Origin: a virus
Taxonomy: Duplodnaviria; Heunggongvirae; Uroviricota; Caudoviricetes
IMG/VR virus record: IMGVR_UViG_3300031418_000001
DNA length: 64,000 nt
Direction: 5' to 3' (one strand)
Numbering within the stretch: position 1 is the stretch's first letter; every line of letters starts with the position of its first letter. The notes beneath the pieces are model-generated. The model was not told where the DNA came from and did no database searches. It saw only the letters and a list, made by a program, of their open reading frames with translations. Positions 7,669 to 55,764 of this stretch are shown here, one piece after another. The translations under genes and the position numbers were made by a program.

Positions 7669-8295
7669 ATGGAACGTACAAACGAAGATATTAAATTATG
7701 GGCTAATATAGTTCAAAATGCAGAACTTGAAAAAGATATTGAAGATGCTGAAGGTCAGACTGTTATCAGTACGGGTCGCCAGGAACTTGATGAAATGCCG
7801 ATGGTACATGATATATATGATGGTGATCGTGAGGATGCTGACGCCACGTTAGGTTTTCAAACTGATGGCCTGGACTCATCTAAACTGGTTCCTGTAGCCG
7901 ATCATGGTGCGTTCAAGACCTTCCGTAACCCACGCGGCGATGCCTACCTTGCCTATGACCAAAATGGCAAATGCATTGGTCTGTTACGTGGATCTAAGAC
8001 AGGTACTATATTACAGGTTGATAATACTATTTCATATAGTCAATCAGGTGTGAAAGGTGTAATGTTTAATCTTTTTATGGATTGTATTTTACAAGGTAAT
8101 AAGATTATCAGTGATGTTACACAATCTCCTGATGCAAAAAACTTTTGGCAAAGATTAATTAGTACTGGACATATTGTATATGTAGTAGTTTACGGTGAAG
8201 TTAAAGGTAAAGCTACTCCACAAAATATGGAAAAGCTATGGACTAATGATATCGAAAATGATGCTGCTGATATTCGGTTATTACTGGTGAAATAA
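7669..8295 (+). CDS. Hypothetical protein, GNAT-like fold
   Basis: IISDVTQSPDAKNFWQRL motif typical of phage GNAT-like proteins. Confidence 0.5.
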   Translation: MERTNEDIKLWANIVQNAELEKDIEDAEGQTVISTGRQELDEMPMVHDIYDGDREDADATLGFQTDGLDSSKLVPVADHGAFKTFRNPRGDAYLAYDQNGKCIGLLRGSKTGTILQVDNTISYSQSGVKGVMFNLFMDCILQGNKIISDVTQSPDAKNFWQRLISTGHIVYVVVYGEVKGKATPQNMEKLWTNDIENDAADIRLLLVK

Positions 8296-8396
8296 ATAAA
8301 AATGGAGTACTTAGGTACTCCATTTTTTTTATGAAACAAATCTAAAAATGTGCTATACTATAATGGCTAAGAAACAAAATAAGGAAATCAAATAAA

Positions 8397-10370
8397 ATGG
8401 CAAAGGAAAAGAAAAATTCTTCCGTACTTCAGGAACATGACGTTCAGCGGTTATCGGATTATTCACATGCTCGTATTCGTACTGAAATGTACTTAGGTTC
8501 TCGTTCTGCTCATGAACAACCAGTTTTGATTTTTGGCGAAAATGATTATCAAGTCAAAAATGTAACATGGGTTCCTGCACTACTCACCGCATTTCGTGAG
8601 ATTGTTGATAACTCGTTAGATGAATTTACTAAAGCTGGTATTAAAGATGCAGTGCTAAGAGTACAATACGACGAAAGTACTTTACAGTTTATTATTTCAG
8701 ATAATGGTCGTGGTATTCCAATTGACTATGTTCCTGAATATAGTCAGCATGTGTGTACTATGGTACTTACTGAAACTAAAACAGGTCGTAACTTCGACGA
8801 TTCACAACGTAAGAAAACATCAGGACAAAACGGCCTCGGTGGTTCAATTACTATGTGTGTTAGTTCTGAAGCTGAATTAGAAGTACATCGTGTAGGGCGT
8901 CCATATAAAACTGCATCAGCAAATGATGAATATAATGGGATGTACAAATTTACACAGAAGTTTAGTGAAGGTAATGAACTGTTTCCTGAACTTAATATTC
9001 AAGACCCTGTTATTCGTAAAGTAAAAGCTGATAAAACAGGAACAACTATTAGTTTCCGTTTAAGTCCAGCGGTATTTAAAAATCGTCAGTTACCAACTGA
9101 ACTGATTTATAGTATTCTGAAAGAAATTGCTGTTGCTAACCCAACATATAAAATCTTCCTGAATGAAAATCGTATTCAGGGACGTGGTACAGCAGAAAAG
9201 GCACTGTTCGGTATTTCTAAACCTATGAGTCTTGTTGTTGACGAAGGTGAATTCCACAGTACTTTCTATGTAGTGCCTAATGCAGTAGCAGACCAAACTA
9301 CAAACTTCCATATGCACGGTATTGTTAACAACGTTCCTGCATTTGACGGTGGTAATCACTTAGACACCTTTAAAAAGAATTTTGCACTTGGTGTTATTAC
9401 TGCACTTGAGAAAGAATCAAAGAAACGTAAACTAAAGCCTAACCGTTCTGATGTTGAAGAAGGTCTTTTGATCTATAACATTACTACGATGAATGCTCCG
9501 TACTTTTCTTCTCAGACAAAATCTAAACTTATTAACGAAGAAGTAATTAAACCAATTGCTAATGCAATGAGTGTTGAGTTCTATGATGAACTTGTCAAGA
9601 AAAACAAAACTTGGATTGATGAGATCTTTGAACGTACTTCAGAACGTACAAATAAGAAAGAAGCTGAAGAAGATCGTAAAGCTGCTAAGAAACTACTAAA
9701 GGCTAAAGTTGCTAAACTTCGTGATGCAGTTAATACAGATCGTTCTGTATGTGAACTGTTTATTACGGAAGGTGATTCAGCAAGTGGTAACTTAATTGCA
9801 AGTCGTGATCCGACTAAACATGCTATTCTTCCATTACGTGGTAAAATTAAATCAGTAAATGGTAAAGAAAAAGTAGCAGATTTGATGGCATCCGAAAGCC
9901 TCAAAGATATTATGGTAAGTATTAACCTGATTCCAGGCGAGAAAGCTGTTCGTGCAAACCTAAACTATGGTCGTATTAATATCAGTACTGACTCAGATGA
10001 AGATGGTAAAAATATTCAAGCACAGATTTGTAATTTTCTTTATACATTCTGGCCTGAATTATTCCAAGATTTAGACAATCCGTTTGTTTATATCTTTAAC
10101 ACTCCATTCATTATCCTGAAGAAAGGAAAACAAGTTAAGTACTTCTATGGTCATCAAGAACATGAATATAATCCTGATGATTGGAAGGATTGGGAAACAA
10201 CACGTGCTAAAGGGTTAGGTACTCTTAAGAAAGAGCACTTTGAAGATGCAATCTATAGTGGTTATACACTTCCTATTGTTGATGATGGTACTCTATCTGA
10301 AGTACTTGATTTAATCTTCAACTCTGACCGTGCTGATGATCGTAAAGAATGGATGAAAGACAAAGAATAA
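8397..10370 (+). CDS. Type II DNA topoisomerase large subunit (ATPase + TOPRIM; gp39+gp60 fused)
   Basis: RTEMYLGS, EIVDNSLDE, DNGRGIP, GQNGLG, TEGDSA, PLRGK, TDSDEDG, KGLGT. Confidence 0.95.
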   Translation: MAKEKKNSSVLQEHDVQRLSDYSHARIRTEMYLGSRSAHEQPVLIFGENDYQVKNVTWVPALLTAFREIVDNSLDEFTKAGIKDAVLRVQYDESTLQFIISDNGRGIPIDYVPEYSQHVCTMVLTETKTGRNFDDSQRKKTSGQNGLGGSITMCVSSEAELEVHRVGRPYKTASANDEYNGMYKFTQKFSEGNELFPELNIQDPVIRKVKADKTGTTISFRLSPAVFKNRQLPTELIYSILKEIAVANPTYKIFLNENRIQGRGTAEKALFGISKPMSLVVDEGEFHSTFYVVPNAVADQTTNFHMHGIVNNVPAFDGGNHLDTFKKNFALGVITALEKESKKRKLKPNRSDVEEGLLIYNITTMNAPYFSSQTKSKLINEEVIKPIANAMSVEFYDELVKKNKTWIDEIFERTSERTNKKEAEEDRKAAKKLLKAKVAKLRDAVNTDRSVCELFITEGDSASGNLIASRDPTKHAILPLRGKIKSVNGKEKVADLMASESLKDIMVSINLIPGEKAVRANLNYGRINISTDSDEDGKNIQAQICNFLYTFWPELFQDLDNPFVYIFNTPFIILKKGKQVKYFYGHQEHEYNPDDWKDWETTRAKGLGTLKKEHFEDAIYSGYTLPIVDDGTLSEVLDLIFNSDRADDRKEWMKDKE

Positions 10371-21245: not shown

Positions 21246-22124
21246 ATGAGTACTTATGCTTGCGGATTAGATCCAGAAGAAAAATTAAAATCCTTACGTG
21301 GCAGTGCAAAAGAACGTGAGAAAGAATTTACACTAACTGAACAAACTCTGATAACTCTTTTCCGCAAGAATAATGGTACTTGTGATTACACTGGAAAACC
21401 GTTCATCAATGATGTTAATAATGATATGTGTCCAAGTGTTGATCGTATCAGTCCTTTCCGTGGATACATCGCTGGTAACATCATTTTGTGTACTCGTAGA
21501 GCGAACAACCTTAAAGAACGTTATTTTGAAAGTAAAAGTTTAGTGCATATCAATAGTGATGATATGTCTGAATGCTATGACATTTATACTAAACTTATTG
21601 ATCCAGTTAAACTCAGTATGTTGTCATTAAATGGGGTAACACATATTCCTCATGTAAAAACTCGTACTCTCATTAATCGGTTCTTTGAGAAAGTACTACG
21701 TACAATTCAGTTAGGATTACCAGTACCTTCTGAGTTACGTGATGCGGCTACAGGTACTACTACTGATGATACAGATGAATCTGTGCAGGATAATAGCATG
21801 TTGGTAGTACAAGAGGTCACAGTGGCACCTGATTATGCTTTGTGTAAAAAATACATTGAATTCTGTGATAAGCATATTACATCTTTATCACTTAAAGAAT
21901 TCAGTACTAAATTCCAGCAACCTATTTGTGATTTCAGTTTAAATGCAATCACTGAACGTGAACTATTTGTAATTGATAGTTCAAAAGATGTAACTGCTAA
22001 CAACCTGTTAGTAGTGGATTCGAAGTACATTAAAGTACTTAATGCTATGAAAGAAAGTTCTATTAATTTCGAACAATTTAATATCTACGTAAACAATATT
22101 TGTAAAGTAATCAATAAGGAATAA
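21246..22124 (+). CDS. Protein with HNH-like endonuclease domain
   Basis: CDYTG...PSVDRI....GY..GNIILC...ANNLK. Confidence 0.6.
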   Translation: MSTYACGLDPEEKLKSLRGSAKEREKEFTLTEQTLITLFRKNNGTCDYTGKPFINDVNNDMCPSVDRISPFRGYIAGNIILCTRRANNLKERYFESKSLVHINSDDMSECYDIYTKLIDPVKLSMLSLNGVTHIPHVKTRTLINRFFEKVLRTIQLGLPVPSELRDAATGTTTDDTDESVQDNSMLVVQEVTVAPDYALCKKYIEFCDKHITSLSLKEFSTKFQQPICDFSLNAITERELFVIDSSKDVTANNLLVVDSKYIKVLNAMKESSINFEQFNIYVNNICKVINKE

Positions 22125-22126
22125 CT

Positions 22127-22543
22127 ATGTCTAAGAAGCTAAAATTTCATTTCACAGAAGGCCACACTCACATTGCTACTGGCGTAGTTAATATGTGGAA
22201 TTCATCAGATGCGTTTGTTTACAGTACCTTCAAAGAAAATGATGGTATTGTAACAAGTTCTGATGTTACAGTTCCAATGCATGATGTATTGTACATTGAA
22301 GTACTTGATGATGCTGGTGGTATTACAGTTGTGCCTGGCCTGATCACATCTTTCAGTGCTGTTCCTAACGCTGCACAAGTAGACAAAGTACAGAAAGATC
22401 TGCAAAACAAAAAAGAAGCAGATGAAAAATTCCTGAAGGAAAAAGAAATTAAACGCCAGAAAACTGCTCAGCGTAAAAAAGAACAACACGCTAAGCATCT
22501 TGGTATTACAGTAGAACAGCTTGAAAGTCTACATAAAAAGTAA
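22127..22543 (+). CDS. Hypothetical protein
   Basis: 138 aa, basic helical C-terminus. Confidence 0.7.
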   Translation: MSKKLKFHFTEGHTHIATGVVNMWNSSDAFVYSTFKENDGIVTSSDVTVPMHDVLYIEVLDDAGGITVVPGLITSFSAVPNAAQVDKVQKDLQNKKEADEKFLKEKEIKRQKTAQRKKEQHAKHLGITVEQLESLHKK

Positions 22544-33657: not shown

Positions 33658-34059
33658 ATATAAAGTACGTGTAAATTTTCAGGGATATGTTCGAGGTCAC
33701 TCTATTGTAACCGTACAAGCAGATTCTGAAGAAGAAGCACTCAATAAAGTACATTACATTGATGAAAGTACTATAAATCTTGCACGTAATGATACTGAGA
33801 TTACTGATAAAGAGATTGAATAATGAGAAGAGATGAAGAACGTGACAGCCGCAGTGATTTACTTGAATGCAAAGAACGTATCAAGCGAATCCTGCGTGAA
33901 TATAACTGTGAAATCAGCAGTACTTATGATTACAGTACCTTATATATCCGAGACAGAGACAATGATGAACGGGTAGGTTTAGACGAAAACGACGACTTTT
34001 AAGTACTTATAATTATAGTACATTTTTCTGAAACAATCTGAAAGATGTGCTATACTTAT

Positions 34060-34585
34060 AGTGTACAACTCTGATTGGCTTCACTGCAAGTGAAGATAAA
34101 ATAGAACCTGATCCTATCGAAAACGTAGATGGCAGATGAGCAGACCAACAGTGCGATGAGCAAATTAGACCCGTGGTGATTTTTACAGAACACGGCAATG
34201 TGGCTCAATAAAGAACCGGATAATACCCCGTAGGTTCCTCGATAGACATATAAGGCTTTGAACCTTACCAAATGGTATAAGGGAATCTAAGGTACTTTAC
34301 TTAGTCAAGCACTCACTCTGTTTACAATATAGTTGTATCCAGAATTTGAGTGGTACTTTAGATGCTTATCAATATAGTTCATGTTGTGTTGATAAGTAGT
34401 GTAGTGATGAACTACGACCGTTGCATATGAACAGAGATAGGAAGAAACAGGGCAACCCGCTTCCGTGCTTAGTGTAATTCTCTACATGAAATGTATGACG
34501 CACCAACGTCAGGTACAATATTCGTCCCTCCAGTGGGGGATGGAAATGTATTCAGAAACCACGTCAAGTATGATTGGTTAAACTA
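34060..34585 (+). ncRNA. Large structured non-coding RNA (~520 nt), family unassigned
   Basis: Promoter motif at 34029-34056; no + strand ORF; many hairpins (GCAA, GAAA loops) and long-range helix 34285-34295/34353-34363. Confidence 0.75.
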
Positions 34586-34688
34586 CTTAATAATAATTAT
34601 AATAGATCTGAATTGATATGAGTACTGAATGAACGTAGTGAATTCAATACGAATGAAATTCTTGACTTACGTAGTAAGGCAACTAAAA

Positions 34689-35051
34689 ATGAGTTATAAT
34701 AAATTAGAAACCCAAGAATTAATAAAAAAATATATTTCCTTAAAATATAATATTGATATTCCTTCTTTTAATGCAGTTCTTACTATAGGTGAGAGTAAGA
34801 ATGTTTACTTTCTTGAATTAATATATCATGGTATCTGGTATTCAATAAGTAACAAACATCCGTTAATGATTCAAGAAAGTAAACAAAAGGGTTCAAGACT
34901 TCTTTATGTAGATGATATTGGGTTAACTAAAGAAGAATATTTTAATTATTCCATAATGTATAATTTCCTTGAAATTATACGTCTTGAAAATGTGAAAGAA
35001 CTAACTGAATTCATTTATAATGAACTTCTACCTTTAGTACTGGATAAGTAA
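34689..35051 (+). CDS. Hypothetical protein, F(N/Q)-motif family
   Basis: GLTKEEYFNYSIMYN. Confidence 0.7.
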   Translation: MSYNKLETQELIKKYISLKYNIDIPSFNAVLTIGESKNVYFLELIYHGIWYSISNKHPLMIQESKQKGSRLLYVDDIGLTKEEYFNYSIMYNFLEIIRLENVKELTEFIYNELLPLVLDK

Positions 35052-37681: not shown

Positions 37682-37771
37682 GGAGAGTTGGCAGAGTGGT
37701 CTATCGCAAACGCCTACTAAGCGTTCGGGGAGTCAAATCCTCCGTGGGTTCGAATCCCACACTCTCCGCCA
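37682..37771 (+). tRNA. tRNA-Ser(ACT)
   Basis: GGAGAGT/ACTCTCC acceptor, G73-CCA, long variable arm, anticodon arm aacgc-ctACTaa-gcgtt, GTTCGAATC T-loop. Confidence 0.9.
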
Positions 37772-44893: not shown

Positions 44894-45204
44894 GGCCCCT
44901 TAGCTCAGTTGGTTAGAGCAGGCAACTCATCAAATGGTGACTTTTATCAGTAATGATAATTGAAAAACTGGATGAATTCAGGGAAACCTCAGCACGTAAT
45001 GGTGGTGGCAACCGTGAGCCAAGCCTGATAAGCGTATCAGGAAGGTGCAGAGACTAAATGGTGCAACACGTTCTTGTTGCGTAATACATTGTTAGCGTCC
45101 GGCACCCTAACTATTATAGAAGGGTGGTGATATAGTCCGTACCAGTATGAAAATATTGGATAAATCGAATTGCTTGGTCACAGGTTCGAGTCCTGTAGGG
45201 GCCA
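44894..45204 (+). tRNA. tRNA-Ile2(CAT), split by a group I intron (exons 44894-44930 and 45168-45204)
   Basis: Joined exons give GGCCCCT/AGGGGCC acceptor and ggcaa-ctCAT|aa-ttgct arm; closely resembles enterobacterial tRNA-Ile2. Confidence 0.9.
44931..45167 (+). mobile_element. Self-splicing group I intron (IC3-like, 237 nt)
   Basis: P1 CAU|C:GGUG with U.G at the splice site, GCAGAGACTA and GATATAGTCC core elements, terminal G. Confidence 0.9.
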
Positions 45205-54507: not shown

Positions 54508-55764
54508 ATATTGCACTAATGGTTGACTATCAAGCTGTCATTAAAGAAGCAGCTATACATTTAGGTACTAAACCTGAGAACTTAAAAATGTATTCCTGGT
54601 ATCTGATGTTTTCAAGTACTGCTGGCCCACGTACTGGTGTTATTGCGGGTCAGGCATTTACTGAATTTCAAGTACTTGGATTTGAAGACAAGCACACTCA
54701 TACATTTATTAAGTACTGCGATGGTGTATGGAAAGATTGGACTGGTCGTATTGGGGTACATTGGTAATGACTTTTGAAGAACTTAAAGTACGTATTAAAG
54801 ACAATAGTAATGTTGTTCTACGTGCTAATAAATCATTCGTAAAGAAGTACTATAACATTCGACAGGATCTTAATTGCGACAGCATTATACTTATTGCTGA
54901 ACTTGAATTATCTGGTAGTTATCATCGTAATCATGTTAAGATTGAAGAAGAAGTTATTGCTGGCGGCTGCAAATTTCTACGTGAGCACAATAAGAACATG
55001 TCAAGTGATGAAGCAATCCTGATTGCACATGCTGGTGGTAACAGTGATGATGGTCATGGTCTTGCAGTACTGTTCATTCATAATGATGAAGACTGTTCTG
55101 GTATTGAAGTACTTAACGTTTGTGAGTATGAGGACTGTGGATTATGAATATCAACAACCAGCTTACAAATAATCACGGAAAATTCCTATCAGAACTCTCT
55201 GCTTTGCTTGCAAAACACGACGCAAGCATTACAATAGAGACTGATTGGAGTGAATATTCCGGTATGACTATCAACTGTTCAGGGTCGAAACTTGACGTTG
55301 GTTGTACCAAAGAATTATCTCCAACTAAAATTCGTTCAGCCTTACGTAATTACGAAAACCGTGGAGAATAAAAATGTACACTCTCATCTTTATGGCATTA
55401 CTTAATACAAATGTAAGTATCGTTGCCCCTGGGCTGGATCATCAAACATGTACTGATACATTACGTGATTTGGTGGGTTCAGTACGTGGAGTTGGGAGTG
55501 TTCGTTTTTCTCGATGTGTACCACAAGCAGATATTACCCTTAAAAATCAATACGGTCTTGATGATCTGATGAAACAGGATCAAGGTAAATGAAGGACTTC
55601 ATTTGGTTTTTAATAGTAGGATCTTATGTACTTCTGATATATGTAGCAATAGCCCAAATATCTTGGGCTTTATTTGATTTCATTGATACGGATGAAATTC
55701 ATATATTGATGACAATTGTGGGTGTAGTATTCTTCCATAAGAAATTACAATTCAGGGGTGAGCT

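Follow-up and report, generated by a model that had tools for sequence, protein, structure and literature searches.

A multi-copy family of large pseudoknotted non-coding RNAs with a promoter of their own in Rak2-like jumbo phages

The window, by which we mean the whole 64,000-nt stretch of phage DNA analysed here, contains at positions 34029–34575 a promoter and the gene of a large structured RNA, an interval from which a conserved open reading frame (ORF) is absent. The locus (34003–34628) lies between a 59-codon ORF that ends at 34002 and the next gene, and holds only short frames of inconsistent placement on either strand. The initial annotation had seen no + strand ORF here and had proposed an ornate non-coding RNA driven by its own promoter. 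Both points are borne out by comparison: the longest frames of 51 homologues differ in strand, frame and position, base pairs covary, and the promoter is conserved in all copies. Downstream of most copies follow small covarying hairpins, a sigma70-like promoter whose spacer contains a hairpin, and then the next gene. The tRNA genes of the window start at 37682, 3 kb downstream of the RNA. The coordinates of all features are collected in Table 1.

Table 1 Features of the RNA gene and its surroundings in the window
Feature	Coordinates	Strand	Description and support
Promoter of the RNA gene	34029–34056	+	TGAAAC 34029–34, N16, TG 34048–49, −10 TATACT 34051–56
5′ leader CUGAUUGG	34071–34078	+	One strand of PK0; partner is the P3 loop, 34145–34151
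P1, cttcac/gtgaag	34079–34095	+	Variable hairpin; in other copies a hairpin of different sequence, poorly aligned
P2/P2a	34108–34135	+	Hairpin with conserved loop GAAAAYGUA; 94% paired; 7/8 pairs change on both sides
P3	34140–34154	+	Hairpin, loop in PK0; 100% paired
P4 enclosing P5	34157–34207	+	P4 34157–61/34203–07, P5 34171–75/34191–95; alignment, covariation model
PKa	34198–34249	+	AUG 34198–200 with CAU 34247–49; 100% paired; 2/3 pairs with double changes; mutual information
P6	34213–17/34233–37	+	Hairpin; covariation model
PKb	34223–27/34274–78	+	P6 loop AUACC with GGUAU; matched −3.9 vs mismatched −2.4 kcal/mol, 0/5000
P7	34251–55/34263–67	+	Hairpin; covariation model
AAGGGA	34279–84	+	Invariant in 51 sequences; unpaired in model
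Variable central domain	34285–34363	+	Closed by P8, 34285–95/34353–63
P10	34365–34396	+	Hairpin; 11/11 pairs with double changes; 92% paired
PKc	34378–84/34484–90	+	P10 loop UUCAUGU with ACAUGAA; 7/7 double changes; 96% paired
P11, gtagt/actac	34401–34415	+	Hairpin; covariation model
Most conserved core	34416–34483	+	PK1, S2, P12, P13; helices 100%, 99%, 100%, 88% paired
PK1	34420–24/34452–56	+	H-type, GUUGC with GCAAC; 100% paired; interleaved with S2
P12	34433–37/34479–83	+	5/5 pairs covary
S2, ggaag/cttcc	34440–44/34460–64	+	Interleaved with PK1
Box1 ACCAACGUCAG	34502–34512	+	First direct repeat; end of module m1
G hairpin	34525–34540	+	G run pairs with a C/U strand; changes confined to one side
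Box2 ACCACGUCAA	34558–34567	+	Second direct repeat, closing module m2; final block conserved in the family
Downstream sigma70-like promoter	34662–82		Hairpin in spacer; upstream of next gene (window copy)

The motif at 34029–34056, recognised as a phage promoter by the initial annotation and detected also by a simple sigma70 scan, belongs to a class (TGAAAC-N16-TATACT) with 11 copies in the window, all on the + strand, where 0.94 are expected (0 of 100 shuffles); several of these copies stand upstream of tRNA genes. The class matches the TGAAACG divergent RpoD-like promoters of phages CBB and GAP32 (PMC5259590). Every homologous copy of the RNA has a promoter of its own phage's class in the same place: TGAAAC...TGGTATAAT in BF, Yen, GAP32 and CBB, TTGGGACAAAC...TGTGATATAAT in Munch, and TGAGACAA...TGCTATAAT in Asteriusvirus. 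From the promoter position we predict an RNA start near 34063–65. Promoter and RNA are linked by the position of PK0, whose first strand starts about 8 bases after this predicted start site. In several paralogues, the two are separated by a hairpin that carries a U run.

The RNA is a multi-copy family. The window phage has no megablast match in the phage collection; in a sensitive BLAST search the stretch matches 70 jumbo-phage records at several places each, including Asteriusvirus 121Q/PBECO4, Eneladusvirus BF/fHe-Yen9-04/pEa, Mimasvirus GAP32/CBB, Munch-like Salmonella phages, XaC1 and Klebsiella phages. Whole-record and profile searches found homologues in every Rak2/121Q-like jumbo phage examined, with 3–5 diverged full-length copies of about 440–590 nt per genome, all on the + strand: five each in BF, fHe-Yen9-04, Munch, GAP32, CBB and XaC1, four in A4, three in 121Q (plus one partial BLAST match) and three, more diverged, in RaK2. 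The 64-kb window holds one copy, matched by nhmmer at E = 2e-118 over HMM positions 6–517 of 519, with an envelope that ends at 34575. It carries the family blocks GACCGUUGC, AACCCGC, UAAGGGA and CACGGCAAUGCGGC as well as two CGUCA boxes, and is 77–79% identical to its nearest known relative, in XaC1. Copies occupy syntenic sites across genera, for example the interval that separates endonuclease VII from the baseplate hub or a position ahead of a Dam methylase/cytidylyltransferase block. Paralogues swap peripheral modules: the P4/P5 region of other copies carries an interchangeable hairpin inserted at one site, and two types of P5 insert occur at one syntenic location.

The family extends to a few bacterial chromosomes. 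Among 5,426 complete E. coli genomes, two contain an intact copy with promoter. Of these two copies, the one inspected, that of E. coli LR-29-1, lies in an island adjoining ffs, together with an IS-split integrase, a resolvase and a DuOB-DUF488-mSLOG/DUF4326 trio. A pattern scan of 185,579 species genomes returned three true matches: in Serratia sp. 2723 the RNA follows a large serine recombinase, in an Enterobacteriaceae metagenome-assembled genome it adjoins a CI-like repressor, and the match in Serratia sp. L9 is partial. Across the four bacterial chromosomes checked, the resolved contexts are thus an integrative island or a position beside a recombinase or repressor, and at two bacterial loci the next gene is convergent on the RNA. 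Compared with the phages, one of the two proteins flanking the E. coli island copy has no match and the other a single weak match to a Pseudomonas phage record. Since these flanking proteins have no counterpart in Rak2-like jumbo phages, only the RNA module appears to have moved; it transfers as a self-contained unit. In IMG/VR, the pattern scan yielded at least 26 true matches. Among the matches listed, each is 82–100% identical to a known Rak2-like copy, and the visible contigs are genomes of about 350 kb or shorter fragments.

We aligned 51 non-identical copies and built a model of 97 pairs with four bracket types. Standard pairs occupy 87.0% of the model cells, compared with 38.7–44.3% when the 3′ partners are slid by 1–3 columns; 69 of the 97 pairs change on both sides (23–42 in the slid controls), and the covariation score of 0.417 (0.070–0.117 slid) is reached by 0 of 500 shuffles. 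The column pairs of highest mutual information are mostly Watson–Crick pairs within stacked helices. Folding of the single sequence is only mildly better than that of shuffles (z = −1.95), so that the weight of evidence is comparative. The RNA folds with six long-range pairings (PK0, PKa, PKb, PKc, PK1 and P12), each supported by covariation or by matched partners. PK0, a duplex of about 8 bp in nearly every copy, PKb and P8 all pass tests of matched against mismatched duplexes (0 of 5000 permutations each; −9.6 vs −5.7 kcal/mol for PK0 and −3.1 vs −0.4 kcal/mol for P8). Eighty-five columns are invariant in the 51 sequences, mostly in unpaired joints such as GAAAA-GUA, AGAUGAG, CGGCAAU-CGGC, GAUAGA, AAGGGA, GACCGU and AACCCGC. 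In the core, GACCGU (34416–21) is invariant, C34415 is conserved at ≥90%, and this core is the only segment that BLAST still recognises in RaK2.

These data bear on the reading that the locus is merely a DNA-level repeat at which proteins bind or recombination takes place, or a group of very small protein-coding genes, in either case devoid of folded-RNA function. The element is a dispersed repeat, part of one copy is annotated as a 'repeat_region' in the UE-S1 record, and small hypothetical proteins are annotated in places. Yet the compensatory Watson–Crick and G–U changes, including long-range ones, make sense only on one strand of an RNA, and open frames are not conserved. We regard this reading as very improbable.

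The hairpins listed in the initial annotation are all present at the coordinates given there, and most recur in the comparative model: cttcac/gtgaag is P1, ccgtg/cacgg is P5, gtagt/actac is P11, and tccc/ggga is the G hairpin. The long-range pairing atctaaggtac/gtactttagat corresponds to P8, and gcttatcaa/ttgataagt to P10. Three elements stood in part. The helix ggaag/cttcc was correctly placed (S2), whereas the GCAA drawn as its loop is a strand of the pseudoknot with GUUGC 34420–24. A taca/tgta hairpin with a GAAA loop can be drawn, but it overlaps ACAUGAA 34484–90, which covaries in 7 of 7 positions with the P10 loop, and was therefore misread; as an alternative switch it received no specific complementarity in duplex tests. 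The tgacg/cgtca helix forms in the window copy, whereas other copies do not keep its register (33% paired). The multi-copy state and the largely pseudoknotted nature of the fold had escaped the initial annotation.

We compared the RNA with all 4227 models of Rfam 15 and found no match on it, either in the window at gathering thresholds or in 33900–34750 at E ≤ 10, and nothing overlapping the RNA at six homologous loci at E ≤ 0.1. In these scans, the covariance models of GOLLD, ROOL, OLE, raiA and HEARO gave no match on the RNA, nor did those of RNase P RNA, group I and group II introns, tmRNA and 6S RNA. As a positive control, the group I model finds an intron at 44919–45159 of the window, and Rfam also finds the tRNAs. 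In the full-text literature on jumbo phages, Asteriusvirus, PBECO4/121Q/Rak2, GOLLD/ROOL and CBB/GAP32, we did not find a description of the RNA, and a search of the UE-S1 paper for mentions of repeats, non-coding or intergenic sequence and replication origins found nothing on the annotated repeat. The initial annotation had left the choice between a GOLLD- or ROOL-like RNA and a new class, to be decided by a scan against Rfam (GOLLD, ROOL, OLE, RNase P, introns) and by covariation among homologues. Since the models of known large RNAs do not match even at E ≤ 10, the comparison supports a new class, described neither in Rfam nor in the literature found.

The 3′ tail behaves differently from the rest of the alignment in that its two direct repeats, box1 (A-Y-C-A-N-C-G-U-C-A-R) and box2 (A-Y-C-N-C-G-U-C-A-R), change together. 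The base at Y is identical in both boxes in 51 of 51 sequences (30 U/U, 21 C/C), with the C state scattered over several paralogue lineages, and the base at N matches in most copies. The Munch_100k lineage has exchanged C for U in both boxes; in all three RaK2 copies CGUCA has become CUUCA, so that both boxes read CUUCAAG, and in the 7k copy of RaK2 the 18 bases that follow the two boxes are identical. Within a copy, the modules of about 30 nt that end in the boxes, m1 and m2, resemble each other more closely than they do across copies (0.643 vs 0.596; 0 of 2000 permutations). No consistent cis partner for box1 or box2 emerged from a scan for 8-mer complements, duplex tests against the P12/PKc strand, or column-wise mutual information. 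The three pairs that the 5′ end could form with box2 are too few to support a contact, and a putative trans partner at 55292–55302, complementary to box1, lies inside a small ORF and has a chance expectation of about 0.05. Between the boxes stands the G-run hairpin, in which GGGG is invariant and the run is G6 in most copies and G5 in the window copy; the paralogues at 93k, 175k and 260k contain in addition a terminator-like hairpin with a U run, which in the 93k group uses box1 as its 5′ arm and competes with the local hairpin. Because the boxes are linked by identity and not by complementarity, they suggest pairing of the RNA with the template DNA strand, or an antisense RNA, of the downstream repeat, templated copying, or one guide that serves both. 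The concerted boxes thus point, as far as their sequences can tell, to an RNA–DNA or templated step and not to ordinary RNA folding.

One use for two identical sites flanking a segment of 45–90 nt would be self-processing: as a catalytic centre, the conserved core would cleave its transcript at both boxes, with or without rejoining, and so free the RNA from longer transcripts or remove the segment. In size, pseudoknot number and invariant joints the RNA is reminiscent of known large ribozymes, and many copies have no clear 3′ terminator. A guide complementary to the boxes was, however, not found, the RNA is similar to no Rfam ribozyme model, and nothing speaks directly for chemistry. We consider a ribozyme quite improbable.

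The concerted change of the boxes is also what complementarity between an RNA and the template strand would predict, and the failure to find a cis partner agrees with it. In this case the RNA would belong to a replication origin: the transcript, or m1/box1, would pair with the template strand of m2/box2 by the G run, and the resulting R-loop would prime or license DNA synthesis. ColE1 RNA II and the transcripts of T4 oriF and oriG are precedents for R-loop priming, and T4-type origins use non-early promoters at several sites per genome. RNA II is, like the window RNA, a promoter-driven non-coding transcript of similar length, and the G-rich and downstream segments of the window RNA could hybridise to the template as those of origin transcripts do. 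The five loci would then be origins, and islands would borrow the element so that the phage replicates them; its capture by integrative islands, at island edges, is in line with this. Further points in favour are (i) the G run on the non-template strand, which is nearly unique to the loci (the 357-kb BF genome has 6 G6 runs, 5 of them in its five RNA loci), (ii) the regular spacing of the copies, with gaps of 62.7, 81.5, 84.3, 76.5 and 52.1 kb in BF, and (iii) the association of the CBB promoter class with DNA-synthesis genes (PMC5259590). By our own calculation, five random points on a circle have a smallest gap as large as that of BF with a probability of about 0.005, and this spacing counts as one observation because the arrangement is inherited.

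Other properties of the loci argue against an origin. A primer RNA needs neither six covarying pseudoknots nor 85 invariant positions, and ColE1 RNA II and the T4 oriF and oriG transcripts are unlike the window RNA in having no conserved knotted core. Across the whole BF genome, the cumulative GC skew follows gene orientation and does not inflect at the five loci; the shared + orientation of the copies is uninformative, as about 85% of BF genes lie on the + strand. The perfect repeat spans only about 10–11 nt and has a one-base offset. A replication-origin RNA is therefore an unlikely explanation, albeit one that deserves attention. We see a somewhat remote chance for its fullest version, in which the RNA would mark and fire origins: an R-loop would form at box2, the core would recruit or time the replisome, the copies 50–85 kb apart would be the origins of a 350-kb genome, and islands would carry a copy for phage-driven replication.

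The position of the copies relative to genes bears on a role as a cis-acting leader, in which the RNA would control read-through into the genes downstream while still being transcribed, either by modifying the polymerase that makes it, like HK022 put RNA, or by gating a terminator in the manner of a riboswitch. At four of the five sites the RNA gene is preceded by a terminator and followed by genes in the same orientation, and the terminator-like hairpin with its U run follows box1 in the three paralogue lineages named above. The HK022 put RNA and the lambda PR′–tR′ 6S unit likewise combine a promoter, a structured non-coding transcript, a terminator and a long co-oriented gene array. The put RNA, however, comprises about 70 nt and two stem-loops, and the present family differs from it in the convergent genes at some copies and in the separate promoter after most. 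At the endonuclease VII/baseplate site of the phages, as at the two bacterial loci, the RNA is followed by a gene transcribed towards it, which rules out leader activity as a general role of the family. Moreover, downstream genes share no common theme across sites, most copies have a separate sigma70-like promoter downstream, ahead of the next gene, and the window copy has no terminator. A leader thus seems to us hardly more than an outside chance.

The reading we prefer, held tentatively and with confidence that falls a little short of even, is that of a stable trans-acting RNA that works through its fold and is encoded by a stand-alone gene; we take it to be neither a message nor a leader. 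The paralogues probably do one job, because peripheral modules are exchanged while the core is kept; together with the exclusion of a general leader role, this favours action in trans. Stand-alone action is also indicated by the E. coli island copy, which is intact and has its promoter among flanking proteins foreign to Rak2-like jumbo phages. According to this proposal, host RNA polymerase would start at the TGAAAC/TATACT-class promoter near 34064, and the transcript would reach at least box1 (34512) and probably about 34575, giving an RNA of roughly 450–510 bases; its transcription, both of its ends, its action in trans and any partner are putative. The RNA would fold into a compact core with about 20 helices, six long-range pairings and many invariant unpaired bases, which the several paralogues of a genome would share while swapping peripheral hairpins. 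Several gene copies would allow it to be made in quantity, as a matter of dosage. The RNA could then form the body of a particle, RNA-only or with a phage protein, or present phage or host machinery with a binding platform or a decoy. Three observations sit uneasily with a trans-acting RNA. Dosage alone does not account for the fixed, fairly regular positions of the copies, nor for the concerted repeats of the tail, and both count against this reading; the terminator-like hairpin before the last conserved block in three paralogue lineages is odd for a simple stand-alone RNA.

To our knowledge, large RNAs (>400 nt) with an intricate fold are known from bacteria or phages in very few classes, each of which has proved to be a ribozyme, a guide RNA or a novel type of RNA assembly. 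The RNA described here is conserved throughout a clade of phages with 350-kb genomes whose hosts are E. coli, Klebsiella, Salmonella, Serratia, Erwinia and Yersinia, which makes it accessible in ordinary laboratory hosts. The 3–5 paralogues per genome, the swapped peripheral modules and the copies captured by islands constitute natural experiments. A role in replication, in conflict between phages and satellites or as a novel RNA particle would give jumbo-phage biology a new subject; even as nothing more than an abundant scaffold, the RNA has a new fold whose structure is worth solving.

Among known RNAs, GOLLD (RF01998) and ROOL (RF03087) come nearest in kind to the window RNA and are like it in being large (about 500–800 nt), rich in pseudoknots, borne by phages or prophages and often located near tRNA genes, and they form RNA-only assemblies as seen by cryo-EM (10.1101/2024.12.08.627333). 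Proximity to tRNA genes and carriage by phages are a likeness of context only. Unlike GOLLD and ROOL, the present family is multi-copy within a genome, occupies fixed sites and is confined to Rak2-like phages and a few enterobacterial chromosomes; on reading the alignment of the 51 copies, we noticed no conserved self-complementary loop. A second comparison is offered by the distantly related jumbo phage PA5oct, in which RNA-seq revealed a 451-nt non-coding RNA that makes up about 5% of phage reads and is abundant throughout infection (PMC7318152). This ncRNA002, a putative lncRNA (MK797984, 21951–22401) for which no promoter is annotated, resembles the window RNA in size, and the non-coding RNAs of PA5oct have no homology to the window family detectable by nhmmer or by BLAST over the whole record. 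PA5oct is thus a precedent for abundant RNAs of about 450 nt in phages of this kind.

The promoter of the knotted RNA belongs to a class, TGAAAC-N14-19-TATANT, that occurs 11 times in the window, always on the plus strand; TGTGC or TGTCC precedes TATACT in 10 of these 11 promoters, and tRNA genes lie directly downstream of several. Between the promoter −10 and the first leader base, eight paralogues of the RNA in related jumbo phages (BF_30k, GAP32_35k, CBB_32k, Yen_25k, 121Q_193k, A4_65k, Munch_41k and XaC1_303k) carry a strong hairpin with a U run on its 3′ side; this hairpin may either stabilise the 5′ end or serve as an early attenuator. The copy in the window has no such hairpin and U run.

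On the 3′ side of the RNA lies a module of ~70 nt, near-identical copies of which follow four XaC1 paralogues. Hairpin CGUAGUGAAUUCAAUACG is succeeded in this module by TTGACT-N17-AAAAAT, the spacer of which itself contains the hairpin CUUAC-GUA-GUAAG. The stem of this spacer hairpin covaries among phages (CAUUC/GAAUG, CUAAC/GUUAG, CUUGC/GCAAG), and the −10 element is a good TAAAAT, TACAAT or TACGAT in BF, Yen (fHe-Yen9-04) and GAP32. This module could represent either a promoter whose spacer is structured or a 5′-UTR element of the gene that follows.

Within the RNA, a small hairpin recurs, depending on the paralogue, at one of two alternative positions, the central domain or the tip of P13, in A1, the alignment of 51 non-identical copies. 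A stem of UGGAY/GUCCA or GUACA/UGUAU carries a loop of ~11 nt that resembles AAnAUAGAUyC. The hairpin has the appearance of a portable tertiary-contact module. In the entire BF genome (KY630187.1, 357 kb), GGGGGG occurs only six times, five of these within the five RNA loci, and CCCCCC is absent. Box1, the first of two co-varying direct repeats in the 3′ tail, is complementary over 11 positions, including one G-U, to TTGACGTTGGT within a 75-codon ORF of the window; this match is probably due to chance.

Coordinates of the features described
Feature	Sequence	Position	Strand
Downstream module	window	34619-34690	
TGAAAC-N14-19-TATANT promoters	window	960, 8332, 19930, 34029, 37643, 38439, 44164, 53220, 57553, 57817, 63898	+
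Complement of box1	window	55292-55302	+
Recurrent small hairpin	A1 alignment	columns ~530-560 and ~340-360	
GGGGGG outside the RNA loci	KY630187.1 (BF)	95107	
RNA-seq-defined 'lncRNAs'	MK797984 (PA5oct)	8263-8498 and 21951-22401	
LR-29-1 island	NZ_AP027515.1	~3473200-3483560	

The related jumbo phage PA5oct expresses two abundant 'lncRNAs', defined by RNA-seq, inside its terminal repeat, and no sequence similarity was found between these two RNAs and the Rak2-like family. In E. coli LR-29-1, the RNA gene resides in a ~10-kb island between ffs and ybaA, and strain EEC_W5 gives a BLAST match of identical score. The island further comprises a tyrosine integrase split by IS3, three unknown genes, a resolvase and a DuOB / DUF488 / mSLOG-DUF4326 trio, of a type typical of predicted conflict systems.
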